A DNA stretch of 35,082 bases from the NCBI GenBank assembly GCA_964415805.1, contig CAYQBQ010000001.1:6641-41722 (forward strand), read 5' to 3'. Under the pieces are notes generated by a model. It was given only the letters and a program-made list of their open reading frames with translations, was not told where the DNA came from and did no database searches. Source of the stretch: an uncultured Clostridium sp. (GTDB lineage: Bacteria > Bacillota > Clostridia > TANB77 > CAG-508). Shown here piece after piece: positions 3,541-32,476 of this stretch (its first letter is position 1; every line of letters starts with the position of its first letter). The translations under genes were made by a program, and so were the position numbers.

Positions 3541-6327
3541 TTGGAAAAGAAAAGAAGTAAAACAAGGATGATGATAGTACTGCTATTTATAGTAATATTT
3601 GCAATAGGAACATATATAAGCTTAAGAGGAACATATTTACAATATAAAGAATTGGGAGAAAATTATGTACAAGCATTTTTTACTAACTTAAGTTACAAAT
3701 ACATAATTTTTGGAGTTAATTTCATATTCTTATATACATTAATATATTTTACAAATAGAGGAATAAAAAAAGGATTAAAGACGTTTTTTGAAAAGGAAAA
3801 TAAAGAAATGCCAAAGCTATTAAACAAATCAATAGCATTTGTAGCATCAGTTATTGTGAGTACATTTATGTCTAATATATTAATGAAAAAAATATTATTA
3901 TGTTCAAGCAATGCATCTTTTGGAGTAACAGATCCTATTTTTGGGTTTGATATAGCATTTTACATGTTCCAAAAACCACTAATAGAAACTTTATTGATAT
4001 ATTTAATAGGAATAATTATTGGAATAACTATTTACATGGCATTATATTACGTAATTATATTCAACAAATATTTTGATGGTGTAGAAGGAAAAATGCTAAG
4101 GAACAGTTTATTAATAAAAAAACTATTAAGAAACATTGCACTAATAATAATATGTATAGGAATATATACCGCTATAGGAACAACGAACATATCCCTTAGT
4201 AAGATGTTAACAATCAAAAATCAAAATAAAACTTCTGAAAACATTGAAATTATAGGAGCTGGATATACAGATAACATAATTCAAAGATGGGGATACTTAA
4301 TATTCTCAGTAGTTATTATAGTAGCTTCATTAAAAGCTATTAAAGCATTTAAAAATAATGATACTTCAAGAGTTATTAAAAATTTAGCTATAATTCCTGG
4401 ATATTTGATAGTAATGTTTTTTGTTATAATATCTTTTGATTTAATTTTTGTAAACTCAAATAAATTAGATAAGGAGAAAGATTATTTAGAAAATAATATA
4501 AAATATACAAAAAGCGCTTATAATATAGATATAGAAGAAGAAAGCAGAGAAAATACAGGAACTATAACACAGACAGAAGTTAACGAAAATAGCGATATAA
4601 TAAATAATATAAAATTAATAAATAGCGACGTGGTATTAAAAACATTAGATTATAACCAAACAGGAACAGGATATTATTCATATAGGAATGCCAATATTGC
4701 AAAATATAAAGTATCAGGAGAAAATAAATTAGTATACATATCAACTAGAGAGATTACTAATTCAGGAAGAACATACAATAATAAAACATATGAATATACA
4801 CATGGAAAAGGTCAAATTGTAGTTGATAGTACATCAACTACAGAAGCAGGGGCAATAAATTATATCCAAAAGGATGTATCTGGAAAAGATGAGCAGTTAG
4901 GTACAACAAATTCAGAAATATATTTTGGATTAGAAACAAATGATATAATTGCTACTAATACAAAAAATAAAAAGGAATATGATTATACAGATGAAGATGG
5001 GTTAGAACATACATCAACATATAATGGAAATGCTGGATTACAACTTGGATTTATAGATAGATTAATACTAGGAATAAAGACAGGTGATTTAAAACTTGCA
5101 TTTTCATCTGAAATAACAAATGATAGTAAAATATTAATAAATAGAAATATTATAAAAAGAGTAAAGGAAGCAATGCCGTATCTAATATATGATGAAGAAC
5201 CATACACTGTTGTAACAGAAGAAGGAAAAATTGTGTGGGTAATAGATGCGTATACTGTTTCAAGTGAATATCCTTATTCACAATATACAACAATTGAACA
5301 TGATGGAATAAAAGAAAAAATTAATTACATCAGAAATTCAGTAAAAGTAATAATAGACGCATATGACGGAACAATGAGATTTTATGTAACAGATAAAACG
5401 GACCCAATTGCTATGGCTTATAGAAATATATATACAACATTATTTGAAGACATAAATACAGAAATACCACAAGATATATCAGAACATTTTGTATATCCAA
5501 AATATTTATATAATGTACAAGCGAAACTTTTAAAAATATATCACAATGTAAAAGCAGATATATTATATAGAAAAGATGATTTATGGGATTTCGCAAAATA
5601 TAATAATACAATAATAACAAAATCATCAGGTACTGTACTAAAACCATATTATACAATGTTTAATTTAAATGGAAAAAGTGAGATTGGATTAATTCAGGTT
5701 TATACGCCAGATTCAAAACAAAACTTAATTTCTTATTTGGTTGGTACAACAGAAGGAAATGCAAATAAATTAAAATTATATAAATTTACACAAGATAGTA
5801 ATATTTTAGGTCCAATGCAATTAGATAATCAAATAGAACAAGATGAACAAATCTCTTCTGAAATAAAGGCGTTAAACACAACAGGAACAAGAGTTACAAA
5901 AGATATGGTGGTAGTTCCTGTAAATAACACATTATTATATGTTGAATCAATTTATCAAACAATGCTAAATGAAGAGTCTAAAATACCAATACTTAAAAAG
6001 GTAGTAGTTGCTTCTGGAAATAAAGTTGCAATTGGAGATAATTTAGAAAATGCTTTAAAAAATTTATTATCAAAAGAAGCATCTAATATTGAAGTTGAAA
6101 ATACTGATGATATTGATGGGTTAATTGAAGCGATTGTTAAGGCTAATAAAAATTTATCTGAGTCTACTAATAATAAAGATTGGGAACTTATGGGATCTGA
6201 TATTAAGAAGTTACAGAGTTTAATTGATTCTTTGGAAGCAGAAAAAGTAAAGGAAGATAAGAAAAAAGCTGAGAATAAAAATGAAGTTAATGAAGTAAAT
6301 AATGTAATAGAAAATATAGTAGAATAA
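3541..6327 (+). CDS. UPF0182 (COG1615) family large membrane protein
   Basis: 928 aa with a TTG start after AAGGAGG. It has a multi-TM N-terminal third, a large soluble domain, the LLYVESIY motif near the C terminus, and a coiled acidic tail. Size and architecture match UPF0182 proteins of Clostridia. Confidence 0.8.
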   Translation: MEKKRSKTRMMIVLLFIVIFAIGTYISLRGTYLQYKELGENYVQAFFTNLSYKYIIFGVNFIFLYTLIYFTNRGIKKGLKTFFEKENKEMPKLLNKSIAFVASVIVSTFMSNILMKKILLCSSNASFGVTDPIFGFDIAFYMFQKPLIETLLIYLIGIIIGITIYMALYYVIIFNKYFDGVEGKMLRNSLLIKKLLRNIALIIICIGIYTAIGTTNISLSKMLTIKNQNKTSENIEIIGAGYTDNIIQRWGYLIFSVVIIVASLKAIKAFKNNDTSRVIKNLAIIPGYLIVMFFVIISFDLIFVNSNKLDKEKDYLENNIKYTKSAYNIDIEEESRENTGTITQTEVNENSDIINNIKLINSDVVLKTLDYNQTGTGYYSYRNANIAKYKVSGENKLVYISTREITNSGRTYNNKTYEYTHGKGQIVVDSTSTTEAGAINYIQKDVSGKDEQLGTTNSEIYFGLETNDIIATNTKNKKEYDYTDEDGLEHTSTYNGNAGLQLGFIDRLILGIKTGDLKLAFSSEITNDSKILINRNIIKRVKEAMPYLIYDEEPYTVVTEEGKIVWVIDAYTVSSEYPYSQYTTIEHDGIKEKINYIRNSVKVIIDAYDGTMRFYVTDKTDPIAMAYRNIYTTLFEDINTEIPQDISEHFVYPKYLYNVQAKLLKIYHNVKADILYRKDDLWDFAKYNNTIITKSSGTVLKPYYTMFNLNGKSEIGLIQVYTPDSKQNLISYLVGTTEGNANKLKLYKFTQDSNILGPMQLDNQIEQDEQISSEIKALNTTGTRVTKDMVVVPVNNTLLYVESIYQTMLNEESKIPILKKVVVASGNKVAIGDNLENALKNLLSKEASNIEVENTDDIDGLIEAIVKANKNLSESTNNKDWELMGSDIKKLQSLIDSLEAEKVKEDKKKAENKNEVNEVNNVIENIVE

Positions 6328-6330
6328 AAA

Positions 6331-6373
6331 AGGGATTGAGGGGCCACCACACCAAATCCCTCTTTTTATTTTT
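6331..6373 (+). terminator. Intrinsic terminator for the UPF0182 gene (left arm of the palindrome)
   Basis: AGGGATT (6331-6337) pairs with AATCCCT (6355-6361), followed by CTTTTTATTTTT. Confidence 0.6.
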
Positions 6374-6484
6374 AATATTATAAGTAATTATTATATATTA
6401 ATATTTAAAGAAAAAGTCCCTATGGAAGACCCGAAGCAGCATTTTTTCTGAAAATATTAATATATAATAATTACAGTTTAATTT

Positions 6485-6528
6485 ATAAGAAAAAAAGAGG
6501 GATTTGGTGTGGTGGCCCCTCAATCCCT
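6485..6528 (-). terminator. Intrinsic terminator for tyrS (right arm of the palindrome, same hairpin on the - strand)
   Basis: This is the reverse complement of the left arm. On the - strand the hairpin is followed by CTTTTTTTCTTAT. Confidence 0.6.
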
Positions 6529-6530
6529 TT

Positions 6531-7742
6531 TTAAACTAATTTATAAAATACTTTTTTACCTTTTTTCAAAATAGCATATCCATCTTTAAAATCAACATCT
6601 GAAAGAACATAGTTCACATCAGAAATTTTATTATCATTTAAAGAAATACCACCTTGATTAATCAAAGTTCTAGCTTGCCCTTTAGAAGGAGCAATACCAG
6701 TTAAAATAATAGCATCCAAAATTGAAATATTTTTATCAGTCAATTCAACAGTAGGCATATTATCCAAATTACCTTTACCAGTAAATAGGGCATTGGCAGC
6801 TTCCTCAGCTTTTTTAGCTTCTTCTTCACCATGAACTAATTTTGTTATTTCAAAGGCAGCAATTTTCTTAGCTTCATTAATATGTTCATCTTTTAAAGAA
6901 GCAAGTTCTTTTATTTTGCCCAAAGGTAAAAATGTTAATAATTTTAAAACATTTTCAACACTTTCGTCTTCAATGTTTCTCCAATATTGATAAAATTCAT
7001 ATGGAGAAGTTTTTTCAGAATCTAGCCATAAAGCACCTTTTTCAGTTTTACCCATTTTTTTACCTTCTTTTGTTGTAAGAAGTTTGAATGTTAAACCAAA
7101 GGAATCATCTTTTCCAATTTTTCTGATTAAATCAACACCACCAATGATGTTAGACCATTGATCATTTCCACCCATCTCTAGTTTACATCCATATGTTTCA
7201 TATAAATGCAAAAAATCGTAAGATTGCATAAGCATATAACTCATTTCGAAAAATGTTAAACCTGTTTCCATTCTTTGTTTGTAACATTCTGCTGCAAGCA
7301 TTTTGTTAACAGAGAATAGGCTACCAATGTCTCTCATAAATTGAACAAAGTTCAAATCTAATAGCCAGTCTGCATTGTTTACTATAATTGCAGCATTTTC
7401 ACCTTCAAAACTAATAAATTTTTCAATTTGTTTTTTAATACATTCAACATTGTGGTCAATTGTTTCTCTTGTCATCATTTTTCTCATATCAGTTTTTCCA
7501 GAAGGGTCACCAATTGTAGCTGTACCACCACCAACTAATATAATAGGTTTATGTCCACATTTTTGCATATGGCTTGCAACCATTAAAGAAACAAAGTGTC
7601 CAACATGAAGACTGTCTGCTGTTGGGTCAATTCCAATATAAAAAGGAACACTCTCTTTTCCAAAAAGTTCTTTAATTTCTTGAGGATGAGTCATTTGTTC
7701 AATATAGCCTCTTTCTTCTAAAATATCAAATACATTCGTCAT
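6531..7742 (-). CDS. tyrS: Tyrosine--tRNA ligase
   Basis: 403 aa with HIGH (HVGH) and KMSKS-type (KMGKT) motifs and a C-terminal S4-like domain. No T-box leader fits in the 37-nt gap upstream. Confidence 0.95.
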
Positions 7743-18099: not shown

Positions 18100-18131
18100 A
18101 TAATGAAATATCGAAAAACAATAAAAAAGTA

Positions 18132-18160
18132 TTGACAAATAATAATACTTAATGTAAACT
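18132..18160 (+). promoter_or_regulatory. Putative sigma-A promoter for the DUF4153/DUF2975/HTH operon
   Basis: TTGACA (18132-18137), a 17-nt spacer, then TAAACT (18155-18160). Confidence 0.45.
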
Positions 18161-18179
18161 ATAACTATAAATTTAAAAA

Positions 18180-18210
18180 ATAGGAATTTAGGCCCGTCCC
18201 CAAATCCTAT
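18180..18210. repeat. Hairpin with a CGTCCCC loop in the 5' UTR of the DUF4153 gene (third stem variant of the GGGAC-loop hairpins)
   Basis: ATAGGA(A)TTT (18180-18189) / AAATCCTAT (18202-18210) with loop aggcccgtcccc. It ends one base before the RBS AAAGGAG. Confidence 0.6.
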
Positions 18211-18226
18211 AAAAGGAGATAAAATT

Positions 18227-19744
18227 ATGAAAAAGATTTTATACAGTAGTTTATTTTTAAGTATATTACAGTCAATACTTTTTTGGCATAAAAGCCCAGG
18301 AATATCAATAGCAATATTTTTGACTGCAACAATTATTTTAATAATATACAATTTAAAAGAAAAAAAAATGCTAAAAAATAAAAAAGGAATATTATGGGCA
18401 ATACCAATAGAATTATTAGGATTAACATATTTTATATTTAACAATACATTTTTTAAAATCCTAAATGGACCAGTTATATTAGCATTATTTGTGATAATGT
18501 GTATGAACGTTACTAAGACGAAAGTAACAGAATATAAATTTATAAGACAAATTTTAAGTAAGATATTTAAACCATTTGCAGTGTTATTTGATTTTATAAG
18601 TGACTTTGATATGGATGAATTTTTTGAAAAGCAAAAAGAAAATAAAAATAATAAATCAGAAAGTGTTAAAAAAGTAGGAAAATCATTATTGATTGCAATA
18701 CCTGTAATCTTGGTTATAATCTTTCTATTATCTTCAGCAGATAGTGTATTTGGAAGTATATTCAGTAGCTTTACAAAATCAATATCAAAAATTCTAGAAA
18801 TAAAAACAATAAATGACTTACTAGGAAGAATTATGGTAATAGCCATAGTGTTTATATATATTTCAGGATTTATAATAGCATTTGCTAAAAGTGAGAAGTA
18901 CGAAGAAAAAGAAGAAAATTCAACAGGAATAAAATTAAGTGATTTAACAATAAAAATATTGTTAGTATCGCTAAACATAATTTATTTATTATTTAGCGTA
19001 ATTCAATTTAAGTATTTATTTATGAATGCAGGAAGAACAGCAGATTTTGACTATGCAACATATGCAAGAACAGGATTCTTTCAATTGATGTTTGTTTCGT
19101 TTATAAATTTTGCATTATTACATATTTGCAGAAAAAATGAAGAAAAGAATAAATTTATAAAAATAATGCTAATAATTTTTACAATAATAATTGTAATTTC
19201 AGCGGCATTCAGAATGCACTTATATGAACAAGAATATGGATATACATATTTAAGATTATTTGTATATTTTACATTGATGACAGAAATTTTAGTATTAATA
19301 CCAATATTAGCAAGGATTTGTGGTCAAAAAATAAATACATTTAAAACTACAATACAAATTGCTATTATAATGTATGTTGCCTTAAATTTTATAAATATTG
19401 ATAAGATAATTGCTAGAAACAATATAGATAAATATCTAGCAGATATAGAAAACGAATCTATTGACTATTACTATTTAAAAGAAATAACTGGAACAGATTC
19501 AATTGAGGAGCAACTAAGAATATTAAATGAGAAAGAAGAAGGCTTATCAGCTGATGCTAAAGAGTATCTAGTAAATCTTAAATCAAGTGTAAGAACTAAT
19601 TTAAGAGGGTATAAACTACAATATGGAAAAAATTATAAACCATCATTTGCTGAATGGAATTTATCAAAATCAAGGGTTGAGTCATTACTAGAAAATGTAG
19701 ACTTAACAGATAGGAGTATAAATTATGAAAATAACTGGAAATAG
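18227..19744 (+). CDS. Polytopic membrane protein (DUF4153/DUF4173-like)
   Basis: 505 aa after RBS AAAGGAG, with many TM helices and a soluble C-terminal region. The family name comes from remembered architecture only. Confidence 0.7.
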   Translation: MKKILYSSLFLSILQSILFWHKSPGISIAIFLTATIILIIYNLKEKKMLKNKKGILWAIPIELLGLTYFIFNNTFFKILNGPVILALFVIMCMNVTKTKVTEYKFIRQILSKIFKPFAVLFDFISDFDMDEFFEKQKENKNNKSESVKKVGKSLLIAIPVILVIIFLLSSADSVFGSIFSSFTKSISKILEIKTINDLLGRIMVIAIVFIYISGFIIAFAKSEKYEEKEENSTGIKLSDLTIKILLVSLNIIYLLFSVIQFKYLFMNAGRTADFDYATYARTGFFQLMFVSFINFALLHICRKNEEKNKFIKIMLIIFTIIIVISAAFRMHLYEQEYGYTYLRLFVYFTLMTEILVLIPILARICGQKINTFKTTIQIAIIMYVALNFINIDKIIARNNIDKYLADIENESIDYYYLKEITGTDSIEEQLRILNEKEEGLSADAKEYLVNLKSSVRTNLRGYKLQYGKNYKPSFAEWNLSKSRVESLLENVDLTDRSINYENNWK

Positions 19745-20234
19745 AAGTATATCTTCAATGATAAAAATATTTCTAATAATAATATTTGCAATATGTATTG
19801 CATCAATAATTACAGTGCCAATTGTTATAGAAAATCAGGGTGATGTGAATTTCAAACAGATGATTTTGAATGAGCCATTAGGAACAACAATAATATGCAT
19901 TTATTTATCAGGAATCCCAGCATTAGTAATGTTATATCAATTTATAAAAATATTTAGTGCATTAGAAAAAGGTGAAGTTTTTAGTAGGAAAATAGAAAAT
20001 AGATTTTTAATAACTTCAATTTGTTCTATTGTAATTGGAATTATATATGGAATTAATGTAATTGTAATGCCAAGTAAAATAGTCCAATTTGAATACTCAG
20101 CAATTGTAGCTTACATATTTTTCGCTATTATTACAGCGATGATATTTCTTATATTAGGAATTGGATTGATAGTGTTAAAAGAAATTTATAAAACCGCAAT
20201 AGAAAATAAGGAAGAAAATGATTTAACAATATAG
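19725..20234 (+). CDS. DUF2975-like 4-TM membrane protein
   Basis: 169 aa, overlapping the upstream gene by 20 nt, RBS TAGGAG. Pairing with a YozG-like HTH gene is the usual DUF2975 context. Confidence 0.7.
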   Translation: MKITGNRSISSMIKIFLIIIFAICIASIITVPIVIENQGDVNFKQMILNEPLGTTIICIYLSGIPALVMLYQFIKIFSALEKGEVFSRKIENRFLITSICSIVIGIIYGINVIVMPSKIVQFEYSAIVAYIFFAIITAMIFLILGIGLIVLKEIYKTAIENKEENDLTI

Positions 20235-20253
20235 TTGAAAAAGGAGAGTTAAG

Positions 20254-20460
20254 ATGGCAATAATAGTTAATTTAGATGTAATGATGGCAAAAAGAAAAAT
20301 GTCATCAAATGAATTAGCACAAAAGATAGGAATTACAAATGCTAATCTTTCTATATTAAAGAACAATAAAGGTAAGGCAATTAGATTTTCTACATTAGAT
20401 AAAATTTGTGAGGTTTTGGAGTGTACACCTGGGGATATTTTGGAATATATTGAAAAATAA
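20254..20460 (+). CDS. XRE-family HTH transcriptional regulator (YozG-like)
   Basis: 68 aa. IIVNLDVMMAKRKMSSNELAQKIGITNANLSILKNNKGKAIRFSTLDKICEVLECTPGDILEY closely matches the YozG-type small regulators. Confidence 0.9.
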   Translation: MAIIVNLDVMMAKRKMSSNELAQKIGITNANLSILKNNKGKAIRFSTLDKICEVLECTPGDILEYIEK

Positions 20461-20511
20461 AAAATGTTATGATATTATGATAAAAATAAAAATTGTCAGG
20501 AGATGTATTTT

Positions 20512-22566
20512 ATGAAAAACAAAAAAACAGTAATAATTGCAATAGTAATAATACTAGCAATAGCAGTTATAGTGGGAGCAATATTTATAATAAACAAGAA
20601 AGCTCCAAAACCTGAGGAAGCACTAAGCACATATATATCATTATTAAATGAACAAAAATATGAAGAGATGTATAGCATGATTTCAGAGTATTCAAAATCA
20701 CAAATATCACAAGAAGATTTCATAAAAAGAAATAAAAACATATATGAAGGAATTGATGCATATGACATAAAAATCATGCCATCCGAAACAACGAAAGATG
20801 GTAAAACATATAGCATCAGATACGATGAAAGTATGTCTACATCAGCAGGGACAATATCTTTTACAAACACTGCAAAATTGGTAAAGGGAGACAAAGATTA
20901 TAAAATAAGCTGGTCTTCTAGTATGATTTTTCCAGAATTAAGAGCAACAGATAAGGTAAGAGTTTCTACTTTATCAGCAAAAAGAGGAGAGATTTTAGAT
21001 AGAAATGGTGAAAAACTTGCTGAGAATGGAAGCATTTCAAGTGTTGGAATCGTACCAGGAAAATTAGGAGAAAACAAAGAAGAAAGTATAAGCAAAATAT
21101 CAGAGTTAACAGGTGTATCAACAGATTACATAAATACACAAATATCAGCTTCATATGTTAAAGATGATACATTTGTGCCAATAAAAAAGATTTCAGCAAA
21201 TAATACAGAACTAAAAAACCAATTACTAGAAATATCTGGAATCAAAATTACAAGTGTTGATGCAAGAGTTTACCCATTAGGTGAAGAAGCAGCACATTTA
21301 ATCGGTTATGTGCAAGCAATAAGTGCAGAAGAATTAAAACAAAAAGAAGGAAAAGGATATAATTCAAGTAGCATTATTGGAAAAGCAGGTTTAGAACAAG
21401 CATATGAAGATACTTTAAGAGGTGTTGATGGAACAGAAATTTATATAGCAGATGAAAATGGTAATAAGTTAAAAACTTTAGCAACACAAGAGAAAAAAGA
21501 TGGAACAGATGTCAAGTTAACAATTGACAGTTTAATACAAAAGAATCTATATGATCAAATGAAAACAGACAAGGGATTTTTTGTAGTTATGAATCCAACA
21601 ACAGGTGAATTACTTGCAACAGTAAGTACACCATCATACAACTCAAATGACTTTGTACTAGGAATGACAACTGATAAATGGAATGAACTTAATAATGATG
21701 CTAGCAAACCATTATACAACAGATTTTTACAAAGCTATTGTCCAGGATCAACATTTAAGCCAATAACCGCAGCAATAGGCTTAACAAGTGGAAAATTAAA
21801 AACAGACACAACATTTAACTATTCAGGACTAAAATGGCAAAAAAATTCAAGCTGGGGAGATGTCTATATAACAACATTAACAGCATATAATGGACCAAAA
21901 AATATAGCAAATGCATTAATACACTCTGACAACATATTTTTTGGACAAGCAGCAATGCAAATCGGAAAAGATACATTCTGTTCAGGACTAGACAAATTAG
22001 GATTTAACGAAAACATTGACCAAACAATTAAATTTCCATTAACATTTAAAAAATCACAATATTCAAATTCAGAAAAAGCAGATATGAATGAAAAGAAATT
22101 AGCAGATTCAGGATATGGCCAAGGCGATATATTAGTAAACCCAATACATATGGCATCAATATACTCAGCATTTGCAAACAACGGAAACATGGTAAAACCA
22201 TATATTGAATACGAAAATGGAAAAACAGAATATTTAAAAGAAAACGCATTCACATCAGATGCAGCAAATACAGTAAAAAATGACTTGATACAAGTTGTAG
22301 AAAATCCAGAAGGAACAGCAACTGACATGAAAGTACCGGGTGTTACGATTGCCGGAAAAACAGGAACAGCAGAATTAAAAACTACAAGCACAGATACAGA
22401 AAGTGGCACTTTAGGATGGTTTGACTGCTTCACAGTTGACTATTCTGCTAGTAACCCAAATGTAAATGATATGCTTATTATAGGTATGGTAGAAAATACA
22501 CAAAATAATAGTAGTGGTGGCAGCCATTATGTAATTAAAAAAATAAGAACTTTATTTGTAAAATGA
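20512..22566 (+). CDS. Class B penicillin-binding protein with an NTF2-like MecA_N domain (PBP2a/PbpC-type transpeptidase)
   Basis: I prefer the ATG at 20512 (9 nt after AGGAG) over 20503. It has a signal-anchor helix and the motifs STFK, HSDN (SxN) and KTGTAE. Its TGA stop is the first triplet of the repeat at 22564. Confidence 0.9.
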   Translation: MKNKKTVIIAIVIILAIAVIVGAIFIINKKAPKPEEALSTYISLLNEQKYEEMYSMISEYSKSQISQEDFIKRNKNIYEGIDAYDIKIMPSETTKDGKTYSIRYDESMSTSAGTISFTNTAKLVKGDKDYKISWSSSMIFPELRATDKVRVSTLSAKRGEILDRNGEKLAENGSISSVGIVPGKLGENKEESISKISELTGVSTDYINTQISASYVKDDTFVPIKKISANNTELKNQLLEISGIKITSVDARVYPLGEEAAHLIGYVQAISAEELKQKEGKGYNSSSIIGKAGLEQAYEDTLRGVDGTEIYIADENGNKLKTLATQEKKDGTDVKLTIDSLIQKNLYDQMKTDKGFFVVMNPTTGELLATVSTPSYNSNDFVLGMTTDKWNELNNDASKPLYNRFLQSYCPGSTFKPITAAIGLTSGKLKTDTTFNYSGLKWQKNSSWGDVYITTLTAYNGPKNIANALIHSDNIFFGQAAMQIGKDTFCSGLDKLGFNENIDQTIKFPLTFKKSQYSNSEKADMNEKKLADSGYGQGDILVNPIHMASIYSAFANNGNMVKPYIEYENGKTEYLKENAFTSDAANTVKNDLIQVVENPEGTATDMKVPGVTIAGKTGTAELKTTSTDTESGTLGWFDCFTVDYSASNPNVNDMLIIGMVENTQNNSSGGSHYVIKKIRTLFVK

Positions 22567-22610
22567 GACAATTGGGACGGTGCAAATCTGTCTCACTATT
22601 TATGTCGAAA
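22564..22610 (+). repeat. Solo unit of the TGAGACA-type palindromic element (family B)
   Basis: TGAGACA (22564-22570) / TGTCTCA (22589-22595) with an 18-nt loop attgggacggtgcaaatc and tail ctatttatgtcgaaa. It aligns with the left half of the addA insert. Confidence 0.85.
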
Positions 22611-22640
22611 TATGTTTAAAATTGTGTGGAGGTATAAGTT

Positions 22641-23171
22641 ATGTTTGAAAATATAAATAAAATTACAATAGTAGGTGGACCAGGAACTGGAAAAAGCACA
22701 TTAGCTAAAAATTTGGGTAAAGTATTAAATTTACCAGTATATCATATAGATTCAATAGAACATTTAGAAAATTGGAAAAAACGAAATAGTAAGGAACGAG
22801 ACAATATCATTTTAAATAAAATAGAAGAACCTAAATGGGTGATGGATGGTACTTACAAAACAACACTGAAACAAAGAGTTGAAAAATCTGATATGGTAGT
22901 ATTTCTTAATTATTCAACACTAGCTAGGTTAAAAGGAATATTTTCAAGATACTTCAAATTAAAAGGGAAAGATAGACCGGAAATGCCAGGATGTAAAGAA
23001 AAGTTAGAATTAAAATTTATAAGGTTTGCAATTAATTGGGATAAAGAAAAGGCACGATTTGTGAAGGATATATTAAGGGAAAATCAAAATAAAAATATTT
23101 TTATTTTTAAAAATAGAAGAAGTTTGAATAAATGGTTTGAAAAAGAGTTTGGTACAAAAATATCATTATAA
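22641..23171 (+). CDS. P-loop nucleotide-kinase-fold protein (FlaR / topology-modulation-protein-like)
   Basis: 176 aa with Walker A GGPGTGKST at the N terminus. Size and layout are those of adenylate-kinase-like FlaR proteins. Confidence 0.7.
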   Translation: MFENINKITIVGGPGTGKSTLAKNLGKVLNLPVYHIDSIEHLENWKKRNSKERDNIILNKIEEPKWVMDGTYKTTLKQRVEKSDMVVFLNYSTLARLKGIFSRYFKLKGKDRPEMPGCKEKLELKFIRFAINWDKEKARFVKDILRENQNKNIFIFKNRRSLNKWFEKEFGTKISL

Positions 23172-23185
23172 ATTAGGAGAATAAA

Positions 23186-23914
23186 ATGAAATTAGGAATA
23201 ATAACAGATATACACGGAAATTTAGTTGCATTAAAATCAGTATTATCAGAATTTGAAAAAGAAAATATAGATAAAATAATATGTTGTGGAGATATAATAG
23301 GAATAGGACCATGCCCAGAAGAAACAATAAAATTATTATTGAAATATAAAGGTAAAGTAATAGCAGTAAAAGGAAATCATGAGCAATATTTATTAGATGG
23401 GTTGCCACAAAGAGTTCATGATAATAGAAGAAAAATGAATCCAGAAGAAATAAAAAATCACGAGTGGACTAAAACACAAGTAAGTGAAACTTCAACAAAA
23501 TTTTTAAAAGAACTTCCAATATATTCAAAAATAGAAATTGAAGGAAAAAGAATTTATATAATACATTATCCTATAGATAAGAATGGAGAATATATAAAAC
23601 ATACTAAGAATGCAACAATAAAAGAAAATGAGAAAATTTTTAATGGAATTCAAGCAGATATATTTGTTTATGGTCATACACATGCAATAAGTGTAAATAA
23701 TAATGGAAATAAGTGGTACATAAATCCAGGAAGTCTAGGATGTCCATTAGCAAGTAATATTGCGAATGCAGGAATATTGACTGTAAACAAAGATAAAATT
23801 GAATATGAGCAACTATATGTAAAATATGATGTGGAAGAAGCAAAAAAAGAAATAAATAATAAAAAATATCCATTTTATAAAGAAATATTAAAAATTTTTT
23901 ATGGAAATGGATAG
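23186..23914 (+). CDS. Calcineurin-like metallophosphoesterase (YfcE/MJ0936 family)
   Basis: 242 aa with motifs DIHGN, CGDIIG, GNHE and GHTH. Confidence 0.85.
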   Translation: MKLGIITDIHGNLVALKSVLSEFEKENIDKIICCGDIIGIGPCPEETIKLLLKYKGKVIAVKGNHEQYLLDGLPQRVHDNRRKMNPEEIKNHEWTKTQVSETSTKFLKELPIYSKIEIEGKRIYIIHYPIDKNGEYIKHTKNATIKENEKIFNGIQADIFVYGHTHAISVNNNGNKWYINPGSLGCPLASNIANAGILTVNKDKIEYEQLYVKYDVEEAKKEINNKKYPFYKEILKIFYGNG

Positions 23915-23963
23915 AATTAGTGCTATTAACCATGCCACGAGAGTTGAAAAAATAGAAAAAATC

Positions 23964-25997: not shown

Positions 25998-26036
25998 TAG
26001 AAAGTTTAATAAATGTAAAATGTAGGAGAAGAAAAA

Positions 26037-26606
26037 ATGAAATTATATGTAGTAAGACATGGACAAACAGACTGGAATGTAGCAGGAAAATGCCAAGGAA
26101 GAACGGATATAGAGTTAAACAACACAGGAATAGAACAAGCAAAAAATACAAAAGTACAATTAAAAAATTATAATATAGATTTGATAATATGTTCACCTTT
26201 GAAACGAGCAATAAAAACAGCGGAAATAATAAATGAAGAAACAAAATGTAACATTATAATTGATGAAAGATTAATAGAAAGAGGCTGTGGCGAAGTTGAG
26301 GGAACAACGAAAGAGGAAAGGCCAGGTATAGTTGATAATGAGGATATAGATATAATAAATAATTATTATTTAAATTGGAATAAAAAAGATATAGAACCAA
26401 TACAAACTATATGCAAAAGGGTATGGAATTTACTGGATGAGATACAAGAGAAATATAAAGATAAAAATATTTTGCTAGTCACACATGGTGGAACTTGTAG
26501 AGCAATTAACGCATATTTTAATGGAATTGGTGAAAATGGACATGTTCAGAGTGCTCATATAAAAAATTGTGAAATTAGAGAATTCAAATATAGAAAAAAT
26601 AATTAA
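26037..26606 (+). CDS. Histidine phosphatase (phosphoglycerate-mutase superfamily) protein
   Basis: 189 aa with the RHG catalytic motif (VVRHGQTDWN), SPLKRAIKTAE and LLVTHGG. It starts 39 nt after the kinase gene. Confidence 0.85.
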   Translation: MKLYVVRHGQTDWNVAGKCQGRTDIELNNTGIEQAKNTKVQLKNYNIDLIICSPLKRAIKTAEIINEETKCNIIIDERLIERGCGEVEGTTKEERPGIVDNEDIDIINNYYLNWNKKDIEPIQTICKRVWNLLDEIQEKYKDKNILLVTHGGTCRAINAYFNGIGENGHVQSAHIKNCEIREFKYRKNN

Positions 26607-26902
26607 AAAATGAATATAAAACCTAAAAGTATAAAGTTTTGAGTTAATTAATTTTATCATATATCCAGTATATAAAATAAAAACTTGTTACTTGCAATTA
26701 ACAAAATTTGTTAAAGAAATAACAATAAACAAAATTACTGCAGGGATATTAAGGTTCTTTACATCATTACTAAAAACAGCATATTGTACTGGAATATGAT
26801 GAAAACAAAAATAGGGTAGACATTGAATAAATTTATGATATAATTATAAAGGTAAAGTACAAAAAATTTGAATTATGATAAAATGAATAAGGAGAAATAT
26901 AA

Positions 26903-27760
26903 ATGATTAATTTTACAAATTGCAAGGAAGAACTAAATAATTATAAGGGCTCTGAAAAAAAGAAAACACTCATATATGAAAATAAAAAATATTTAGTCAA
27001 GTTTCCAGACCCAATAAGAGAAAAAAATAAAAACATATCATATATAAACAATGCATTCTCTGAATATATAGGAAGTAACATTTTTAAAATTGTAGGATTT
27101 CCAACTCAAAATACGATTTTAGGAATATACAAATATAATGAAAAAGAAAAAATAGTATGTGCATGTGAGGATTTTACAGATTCAAGCAAAACCTTATATG
27201 AATTTGAAAATCTTGCATTAAGTACAAATCCAGACAAAAAAATTGAAACAGAATTATCAGATATTTTAAATGTATTAGATGAAAATAAAATAATAAATTC
27301 AACTAAAATCAAAGAAAAATTTTGGGATATGTTCATCATAGATGCTTTAATAGGAAACACAGACAGACACAATGGAAACTGGGGATTCTTAGTAGATAAT
27401 CAAACTAAAGAAGTAGAGTTTGCACCAATATATGACTGTGGTTCTTGCTTAAATCCAATGATAGATGATAATGAAATGGAAAAGTTAAAGGAAAATGAAA
27501 TAAAGAACTTAGCTATAAATTGTTATTCTTGTTTAAAAAAAAATGGTAAAAAAATAAACTATATGACATATTTAAGATATACCAAAAATGAAGAATGCCA
27601 TAAAGCTATTATTAGAGTGTTTAAAGACATAAATATTATTAAAATAAATAACTTTATAGATGGAGTATCTTGTATGTCTAATATAAGAAAAGAATTTTAT
27701 AAAGAAATAATCAATATAAGATATAAAATTATAGAGGAGTGTTATAATAAAATCAAGTAG
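26903..27760 (+). CDS. Short HipA_C-like serine/threonine kinase domain protein (orphan)
   Basis: 285 aa with the catalytic loop GNTDRHNGNWGF and a downstream PIYDCGS motif. RBS AAGGAG. No HipB-, HipS- or HTH-like partner ORF lies in the 296-nt upstream gap or downstream. Confidence 0.75.
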   Translation: MINFTNCKEELNNYKGSEKKKTLIYENKKYLVKFPDPIREKNKNISYINNAFSEYIGSNIFKIVGFPTQNTILGIYKYNEKEKIVCACEDFTDSSKTLYEFENLALSTNPDKKIETELSDILNVLDENKIINSTKIKEKFWDMFIIDALIGNTDRHNGNWGFLVDNQTKEVEFAPIYDCGSCLNPMIDDNEMEKLKENEIKNLAINCYSCLKKNGKKINYMTYLRYTKNEECHKAIIRVFKDINIIKINNFIDGVSCMSNIRKEFYKEIINIRYKIIEECYNKIK

Positions 27761-27795
27761 AAACAAAAATAATTATAAAAGCTATAAGAATCTAG

Positions 27796-27830
27796 AACTA
27801 TGGAGAAAAACTAAGTCTTCATAGTTTTTT
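27796..27830 (+). terminator. Intrinsic terminator after the HipA-like gene
   Basis: Stem 27796-27806 / 27816-27826 (aactatggaga / tcttcatagtt, one G-U pair) with a 9-nt loop, followed by TTTT. Confidence 0.65.
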
Positions 27831-27869
27831 CTATACCAAAAAATTTAAAAGTGACAAAATTTATAGTAA

Positions 27870-31220: not shown

Positions 31221-31223
31221 ACA

Positions 31224-31256
31224 TAAACCATTGGGGACGTTGTTAAATTGATTGAA
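31224..31256. repeat. Degenerate, inverted copy of the GAACCAAT-type element (family A)
   Basis: taaaccattggggacgttgttaaattgattgaa matches the reverse complement of 18041-18071 at about 27 of 32 positions. The stem complementarity is eroded. Confidence 0.65.
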
Positions 31257-31339
31257 ATTTCTATATGATATTAATAATTTAAGATAAAAAAATAAATTTA
31301 GTTAAGAAAAAATTTTATTAAATATATAAAGGAGACCAG

Positions 31340-31864
31340 ATGCAAAATAATGAAATTATAGTTTTAATTAATTCAAATAATACAATTTTAAAATTTCCTA
31401 AATGCAACATAGAAATACCAGCATTTATAGGAAAAAATGGACCAACATTGAACAAAAAAGAAGGAGATGGTTGTACTCCAATTGGTGAATTTAATTTGGG
31501 TCTACTGCTTGGAACACATGATAGAATTTCTAATGAAAATTATAGTTATACAAAAATAAATTCTAATATGTATTGGGTTGATGATAGCAATTCTATTTAT
31601 TATAATAAATTAGTTGATATAACTAAAGTAAAAAAAGATTGGAATAGTGCGGAACATTTAATTGATTATCCAATTCAATATGAATATTTAATAGAGATAA
31701 AGAGCAATCCTCTTAATATCCCTAACAAAGGAAGTGCAATATTTCTTCATTGCAGTAATAATAATGCAACTCATGGATGCATAGCAATAAATAGGAATGA
31801 TATGAAAAAGTTAGTCAATAATATTGACAAAAATACTAAAATCAATATAATTCAGCAAATGTAA
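31340..31864 (+). CDS. YkuD-fold L,D-transpeptidase family protein
   Basis: 174 aa with the catalytic signature FLHCSNNNATHGCIAI (His ... Gly-Cys). Confidence 0.75.
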   Translation: MQNNEIIVLINSNNTILKFPKCNIEIPAFIGKNGPTLNKKEGDGCTPIGEFNLGLLLGTHDRISNENYSYTKINSNMYWVDDSNSIYYNKLVDITKVKKDWNSAEHLIDYPIQYEYLIEIKSNPLNIPNKGSAIFLHCSNNNATHGCIAINRNDMKKLVNNIDKNTKINIIQQM

Positions 31865-32109: not shown

Positions 32110-32436
32110 ATGTACTATACATATATGATAAGATGTGCAGACAACTCAATTTATACAGGAATAACAAATGATTTAAACAAACGTCTAAATGAACACAAAA
32201 CAAAAAGCAAAAATGGAGCAAAATACACAAAATCACATACTGCAATAAAATTTGAAACAGTATGGAAAAGCAGGGACAAATCATTAGCATGTAAGCTAGA
32301 ATATCAAATTAAACAACTTACAAAAAAGCAAAAAGAAAATCTAATAAATGGAGAAAGATTATCAACATATCTACACGGAAAAGTAGACTGCAGGAGATAT
32401 AGAAAATGCTCATCTATTAATGATGCCATACTTTGA
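32110..32436 (+). CDS. GIY-YIG nuclease superfamily protein (UPF0213/YazA/YhbQ-like)
   Basis: I prefer the ATG at 32110 (MYYTYMIRC...IYTGITNDLNKRLNEH). This is the classic small stand-alone GIY-YIG domain. Its TGA stop is the first triplet of the repeat at 32434. Confidence 0.85.
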   Translation: MYYTYMIRCADNSIYTGITNDLNKRLNEHKTKSKNGAKYTKSHTAIKFETVWKSRDKSLACKLEYQIKQLTKKQKENLINGERLSTYLHGKVDCRRYRKCSSINDAIL

Positions 32437-32476
32437 ACCAATTTAAGAACGTCCCCATTGGTTCCCCATTGGTTCA
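32434..32476. repeat. GAACCAAT-type palindromic element (family A) with an internal 11-bp tandem duplication
   Basis: tgaaccaatttaagaacgtccccattggtt is identical to 18041-18070. ccccattggtt occurs twice (32453-32463 and 32464-32474). Confidence 0.9.

Follow-up and report, generated by a model that had tools for sequence, protein, structure and literature searches.

Most of what has been established about REP repeats and their tyrosine transposases comes from Proteobacteria, where a GTAG tag marks the base of the stem. For TnpA_Y1 subclass 2.1 we know of no substrate rule. This subclass corresponds to the TIRYTs and has a C-terminal helix-turn-helix (Quentin et al. 2018, PMC6006769), of the Bac_DnaA_C, HTH_23 or HTH_28 type; it was present in 14.9% of strains, and no REP-like sequences were found in its gene neighborhoods (PMC6006769). 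TIRtrons/TIRYTs were described as RAYT-like genes lying between inverted repeats with a common motif, GGGGWSAS (Di Nocera et al. 2013, PMC3733652), some of the TIRtron repeats being self-complementary and dispersed (PMC3733652).

We have analyzed a stretch of 35,082 nucleotides (hereafter, the window) from the genome bin of an uncultured Clostridium sp. (1.12 Mb, 154 contigs, ~26% GC, 62% complete), for which the related records are uncultured gut Clostridia. The hairpins found there belong to a system of the TIRYT/REP type, in which the loop-borne tag, the free stems, the several families and paralogues per small genome and the Bacillota-wide spread are new. The likeness to TIRtrons/TIRYTs comprises a RAYT-like Y1 transposase with a C-terminal domain (here a putative HTH, by weak matches), inverted flanks with a G-rich motif, and moderately abundant dispersed repeat families that are often dimers. 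Family B GGGGACAG fits GGGGWSAS exactly, and GGGGACGK of families A, C and D and GGGGCCAC of family E are one position off. The system differs in that the motif lies at the 5' side of the loop of a freely varying stem, in that several families and paralogs occur together in one small genome, and in its hosts, gut Clostridia and other Bacillota that are unnamed for TIRs in the texts of PMC3733652 and PMC6006769.

Short intergenic palindromes, inverted doublets, a single-copy Y1 transposase between inverted units (REPtron) and insertions within genes are shared with the REP/BIME/REPIN repeats and their RAYTs (TnpA_REP groups 2 and 3; PMC2817692, PMC3479197, PMC8266576), and the nearest solved structure of the transposase, 4ER8, comes from that group. 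The stems here are, however, AT-rich whereas REP stems are GC-rich, the loops have 11–18 nt and bear the conserved tag, and the transposase has an extra C-terminal domain that is HTH-like by weak matches. Of 75 units, 1 had a REP head, sought as GT[AG]G in the 7 nt preceding the stem on its 5' side. The CGTC-tagged REPs (PMC3733652) are also short AT-rich-stem palindromes forming head-to-head dimers, and the tag of the present system, read on the other strand as CGTCCCC, includes CGTC. Their tag is, however, unpaired and terminal, the loop has 4–5 nt, and a CCA tail is present without a transposase. Membership in that group was ruled out by the position of the tag inside an 11–18 nt loop; here, a transposase is associated.

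With IS200/IS605 elements (IS608, ISDra2 and the gene-less PATEs) the system shares the Y1 HUH fold and subterminal hairpins for recognition. The end hairpins of IS200/IS605 lie on the same strand, whereas the flanks here are inverted, and the gene-carrying element here is not multi-copy and has no tnpB gene. Membership was ruled out by the inverted flanks (upstream, GGGAC on the coding strand at 51 loci vs 1; downstream, inverted at 30 vs 2) and the single transposase gene.

Rolling-circle Rep origins offer a functional analogy: an HUH enzyme goes together with a hairpin that has a conserved loop and stems that differ by lineage, and the nick lies within the loop. The present system departs from it in that an empty site shows insertion of the whole hairpin, pointing to cuts outside the stem. 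Literature text searches with TIRYT and the loop strings gave nothing further, the loop strings returning only unrelated primer matches.

Hairpin families and their loop tag

The genome carries five hairpin families with unrelated stems, and a list of every GGGACG site showed several of them. On its 5' side, the loop bears a G-rich tag in every family, GGGGAC(G/A) in families A to D and GGGGCCAC in family E. Three stem classes around a shared loop core had been proposed by an earlier reading of the sequence alone (hereafter, the sequence-only reading); the pattern stands, and the number of families rises to five. Pattern counts over 867 kb of low-GC contigs gave ~130 units in total. The 54 short contigs with a GC content of at least 33%, which make up roughly a quarter of the bin (255 kb), were without the hairpin families and are probably bin contamination.

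Family A, about 28 units: TGAACCAAT-GGGGACGTTCTTAA-ATTGGTTCA
Family B, about 39 units: TGAGACA-nTTGGGAC(A/G)GTCCnAATT-TGTCTCA
Family C, about 11 units, including the hairpin at 18180–18210: TAGGAWTT-GGGGACGGGYYAA-AAWTCCTA
Family D, about 6 units: AACTGTTTTT-GGGGACGGAGGAA-AAAAACAGTT
Family E, about 46 units: GGGATT-GAGGGGCCACCACACCA-AATCCC

For family B the sequence-only reading had given the loop as GGGACGG; most units read GGGACAG. Outside the stems, the family consensuses showed no base that is conserved; in family B a tail, (T)TTGTCGAA, is conserved a few nucleotides past the hairpin, so this repeat is somewhat longer than the hairpin itself. Besides the family C unit in front of the DUF4153 gene, the window contains the following copies.

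6332–6527: family E +/- doublet, units 6332–6360 (plus strand) and 6499–6527 (minus strand)
16151–16182, minus strand: family B, TGAGACAA-GTGGGACAGTCCAAAT-TTGTCTCA
18041–18072, minus strand: family A, with the family sequence given above, just past trxA; a decayed second copy extends to ~18099
22564–22595, plus strand: family B, 3' tail ATGTCGAA at 22602–22609
31225–31253, plus strand: degenerate family A, AAACCATTGGGGACGTTGTTAAATTGATTGAAA, within a stretch that diverges from G041
32435–32464, minus strand: family A, 3' arm partly duplicated, to 32475
33903–34021: family B +/- doublet, units 33903–33934 (plus strand) and 33990–34021 (minus strand), in frame within addA

Adjacent pairs of the same family were ordered +/- in 24 of 24 cases, with spacers of 10–138 nt, a layout that is that of the two flanks of a transposase gene minus the gene. 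The doublet of family E, with loop GGGGCCAC, forms the arms of a 206-bp palindrome (6327–6532); the GTCCC that had been pointed out at the palindrome center lies outside any unit. Single units showed no significant leading/lagging-strand bias (38 vs 26).

The window was compared with the genome G041, with which its syntenic blocks share 93–98% identity. The addA doublet, which lies between the helicase motif VGDVKQSIYRFRQA and KNFRS and adds ~39 residues with no stop codon, is also present in G041. In family B the opening TGA of the stem TGAGACA can serve a gene: at 22564–22566 it is the stop codon of a penicillin-binding-protein gene (20503–22566), and several further family B units similarly overlap ORF ends, by 2–7 nt. 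About 30 nt past this same unit begins a 1.3-kb segment (22626–23953, with ORFs at 22641–23171 and 23186–23914) that is absent from G041; further segments swapped with respect to G041 are 25998–27847 and 31222–31346. At the place of the family A unit after trxA (18041–18072), G041 has a different palindromic element: there (contig C1, L122, the region corresponding to window 18041–18100), as in the genomes G044 and G045, a palindrome GTTACAGTTCAG-N18-CTGAACTGTAAC without the GGGAC tag follows trxA, and a remnant, TGTGAACCAATAA, adjoins it.

AT-rich genomes yield many weak hairpins, and ~2,200 with a stem of at least 7 bp arose even in shuffled sequence, as would suit the view that chance palindromes happen to share a G-rich pentamer. 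Among all genome hairpins (perfect stem of at least 7 bp, loop of 7–22 nt), however, GGGAC was the top-enriched loop 5-mer, with 73 occurrences vs 9–18 in ten dinucleotide shuffles, and the next-ranked 5-mers belong to family E. In the window, GGGGACG was observed 4 times vs 0.09 expected. Genome-wide, 24% of the GGGAC sites lay in the 5' part of the loop of a perfect stem of at least 7 bp, vs 0–3.5% for unrelated permuted pentamers. Defining the units by the stem alone avoids circularity and, with the 5-mer ranking, constitutes the unbiased check: GGGAC was present in 36/37 units of family B and 4/5 of family D, and GGGRCCAC in 43/50 of family E. Together with the systematic link to a transposase gene, these values make a chance origin scarcely conceivable. 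They bear out the sequence-only reading in its view that the hairpins are recognized structures and not chance palindromes: the motif exceeds its frequency in dinucleotide shuffles, and most further family members keep the GGGAC core.

The transposase and its flanking hairpins

The sole Y1 transposase gene of the genome (G000:C26:2918–3661) encodes 248 aa and matches Pfam Y1_Tnp; against NCBIfam REP_Tyr_transpos the protein scored 60.7 bits, under the cut-off of 80. In an alignment of 17 homologues, H60-x-H62 and Y120-x-H-x-N-P were invariant. The only PDB sequence match was E. coli TnpA_REP in 4ER8, where it is bound to a REP hairpin, and the same entry was the best fold match (TM 0.73) of the AlphaFold model (pLDDT 87.7), followed by the IS608 and ISDra2 TnpA. 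The model predicts a helical C-terminal domain (residues ~185–248), and the C-terminus weakly matched a number of HTH families, HTH_23 and HTH_28 among them, each time below the cut-off.

Inverted family B units stand on both sides of the gene. The upstream one is cut by an IS3-family insertion in this genome and intact in a near-identical one (L022, L132). The IS3-family element (L001:1975–3329 on G000:C26, orfA 2047–2559, orfB from 2601) truncates this unit after TGAGACAAATTAGGACTG; in G041 its counterpart is intact. Only the family B transposase was seen in this 62%-complete genome. For the other families, cognate or near-cognate transposases were found as follows.

Family A, in close relatives: L137
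Family C-like, in relatives: L135, with the unit CGGGATT-tGGGGACGGGTCTcc-AATCCCG
Family D, in relatives: L081
Family E, in relatives: L136, a RAYT gene of G041 that is flanked by family E hairpins

An A-type transposase was not found in G041, though many family A units are present there.

Transposase homologues were present in 25 of 41 relatives, and a search of a species collection with a 6-sequence alignment as query gave 532 candidate stretches, from which 80 loci were kept. A GGGAC-loop hairpin lay at most 500 bp from the gene at 56 of the 80 loci; the upstream units carried GGGAC on the coding strand at 51 loci and on the other strand at 1, and the downstream units were inverted at 30 loci and not inverted at 2. 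The same layout was seen at 20 additional paralogue loci of the genus. Across the order, 87/123 loci had a canonical flank, with 53 different 6-mer stems, and 36/123 had none; the search for flanks was anchored on GGGAC, so that the invariance of GGGAC in them is partly built in. The base after GGGAC was G at 53 loci and A at 33, and a C-rich stretch followed at +8 and +9. Where one genome holds several paralogues (e.g., G021, G006 and G001), each has its own stem family. In a survey of Bacillota, homologues were found in 48/151 genomes (43/127 genera), and 15 of 20 loci from different families of the phylum (GC 35%–56%) had the same layout, mostly with the loop GGGGACGGTTCT.

Hairpins and transposases have diverged together. 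On a tree of 77 transposases, the loop subtype required 23 changes vs 36–48 in 300 label shuffles, and the stem class 11 changes vs 18–24 in shuffles; stem and loop subtype thus follow the transposase tree. The stems also covary, as seen in an alignment of 23 units whose loop has 13 nt, representing 20 stem families and, in addition, three family C copies of this genome. All 8 stem pairs changed on both sides, 95% of the cells paired vs 44.5% in shuffles, and the covariation score was 1.21 vs 0.23 in shuffles and 0.13–0.34 with slid partners. The selection of units demanded the inner six stem pairs; the outer two, which lay outside it, paired in 17/22 and 20/23 sequences.

The covariance model built on this alignment gave the family A unit at 18041–18072 20.7 bits (E 1e-3), though this unit was outside the training set, and matched the family B units of the window weakly, with 8–13 bits. 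Among the 41 relatives, hairpin matches occurred in 21/25 genomes with the transposase vs 1/16 without it (Fisher p 1.6e-6, Spearman rho 0.80), p values that overstate independence owing to the kinship of the genomes. There were up to 66 matches per relative genome, and the transposase-free genomes were scattered within the same genus. The sequence-only reading had suggested a search for partner genes that co-occur with the hairpins, and the Y1 transposase behaves in this way. An HUH/RAYT-type enzyme acting on a single-stranded DNA hairpin had been the first of its candidates, and this one is supported by hairpins flanking more than 100 RAYT-like Y1 loci in fixed orientation, by the co-occurrence and by the co-divergence.

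The hairpin in front of the DUF4153 gene

The hairpin at 18180–18210 reads ATAGGATTT-GGGGACGGGCCT-AAATTCCTAT on the minus strand, where its 3' arm is AAA(T)TCCTAT and GGGGACG occupies the 5' side of the loop. Folded as single-stranded DNA it gave -4.7 kcal/mol (z -2.9), and the family C unit scored 33.2 bits with the covariance model. Its surroundings are as follows.

18132–18160, plus strand: promoter-like TTGACA-17-TAAACT (consensus scan), upstream of the insertion
18181–18214, minus strand: family C unit, a 34-nt insertion, TAGGAATTTAGGCCCGTCCCCAAATCCTATAAAA (plus strand)
18227–19744: DUF4153 gene (Pfam, E 2e-74), downstream of the insertion, as is its RBS

The 34 nt at 18181–18214 are present here and missing from G041, and they are the sole indel of at least 12 nt in a 6.9-kb block (15689–22625) of 93% identity. 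The TTGACA-17-TAAACT site and the RBS are both kept in G041, which has no hairpin there. There are 11 family C copies here vs 0 in 406 kb of G041, which suggests a recent expansion in this lineage. Judging from this comparison, the segment 18181–18214 is a single family C unit that was recently inserted downstream of the predicted -10 box and ahead of the DUF4153 RBS. When further empty sites were sought against the 406 kb of G041 (170 kb aligned), it was the only clean unit insertion, so that turnover appears slow. A possible short T-run duplication at the insertion was indistinguishable from low-complexity sequence.

The unit is antisense to the DUF4153 gene, the transcript of which would show CGUCCCC. 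The RNA fold of the 5' UTR was unremarkable (-7.2 kcal/mol, z -0.3) and left the RBS free, and a terminator-like pattern lies on the minus strand. The placement between promoter and RBS given by the sequence-only reading is correct; its description as a transcribed 5'-UTR stem-loop does not carry over to a conserved element, since the hairpin is missing from G041 despite the same promoter and RBS and is antisense. The hairpin is most probably a mobile-repeat copy and not a gene-specific regulatory RNA, so that whatever it does to DUF4153 expression would be incidental to the insertion, and annotation as a regulatory RNA is unwarranted.

Two family C singles at unrelated loci, this one (flank at window 18166–18180) and G000:C16:236–286, share an identical 14-nt 3' flank, TTTTTTAAATTTAT. 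Part of it, TAAATTTAT, is already present at the G041 empty site, and there may be a target preference.

Proposed mode of action and alternative readings

In our view the hairpins are likely to be REP-like, non-autonomous units of mobile DNA that go with a RAYT-like Y1 (HUH) transposase subclass with a predicted C-terminal helix-turn-helix. What has been observed is that the units accompany the transposase gene, keep a fixed orientation to it, diverge together with it and covary in their stems, and that one of them shows an insertion polymorphism. The subclass would correspond to TnpA_Y1 subclass 2.1, i.e., TIRYT. Each transposase paralog would have its own hairpin on both sides, in two inverted copies, and gene-less copies, single or as +/- doublets, would be dispersed in intergenic DNA. 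The stem would need only to pair and would drift along with the paralog, while the G-rich loop tag GGGGAC(G/A), with GGGGACGGTTCT as the commonest form across the sampled Bacillota, would be kept. Its conservation suggests that the tag is most likely the feature that the enzyme recognizes on the folded single strand, and it would also mark which of the two strands is active. As with the related IS608 TnpA and E. coli TnpA_REP (PMC8266576, PMC3479197), cleavage most likely falls outside the hairpin; in keeping with this, the empty site shows that the whole hairpin was inserted. Recognition and cleavage both within the loop, with a nick inside the tag as in rolling-circle Rep origin hairpins, seem improbable to us. 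Such nicking by this widespread subclass of chromosomal Y1 enzymes would be a mode unlike that of IS608 TnpA and E. coli TnpA_REP, acting on dozens to more than 100 hairpins per genome, and could tie the hairpins to replication-fork processing beyond transposition.

The main rival is a more conventional reading, which takes the units as MITE-like terminal inverted repeats, with the helix-turn-helix binding GGGAC in the duplex and the hairpin potential being incidental. The literature does name such flanks TIRs sharing GGGGWSAS (PMC3733652), and the inverted flanks, the uniformly +/- doublets, the C-terminal helix-turn-helix (weak matches) and the conservation of the family B tail beyond the hairpin agree with this reading. 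Moreover, the bases after GGGAC tend toward an interrupted palindrome, GGGAC-R-GTCC, and the near-palindrome GGGAC-N-GTCC of several loops fits double-stranded recognition. A duplex binding site needs no self-complementarity, however, and here self-complementarity of the repeat is kept over more than 50 unrelated stems, with both-side changes at every aligned pair, which weakens this reading. Furthermore, for characterized Y1 HUH enzymes cleavage is confined to single-stranded DNA (PMC8266576, PMC3479197), and at 18181–18214 a single hairpin was inserted, not a pair of repeats. On balance, we regard duplex recognition as unlikely.

The hairpins could instead act mainly as RNA, as a motif or protein site (e.g., GGA-in-loop), a terminator or an mRNA stabilizer, with the copy at 18180–18210 regulating the DUF4153 operon. 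Many units lie just past stop codons and would be transcribed, and this copy, located between a promoter-like site and an RBS and with a terminator-like pattern on the minus strand, would suit such a role. Nonetheless, between co-directional genes the units occur in both orientations (27 sense vs 14 antisense), and the orientation is fixed relative to the transposase gene and not to host genes. The DUF4153 copy is antisense, would present CGUCCCC in its RNA loop, is missing from a 5' UTR in G041 that keeps promoter and RBS, and lies in a UTR with an unremarkable fold and a free RBS; no match at gathering score to Rfam 15 was obtained in the window. An RNA motif or RNA-binding-protein site, also among the earlier candidates, is therefore very improbable.

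The reading of the hairpins as mobile DNA units explains several odd palindromes of the genome together. It supplies a testable rule, any stem plus a GGGGAC(G/A) loop, which held in the 15 of 20 Bacillota loci noted above, and it would provide concrete oligonucleotide substrates for the biochemistry of an enzyme class acting on single-stranded DNA. In two other Bacillota genomes, G066 and G078, 10–11 transposase copies were found, including two adjacent on one contig; in such multi-copy lineages, the gene may have kept the behavior of an active insertion sequence.
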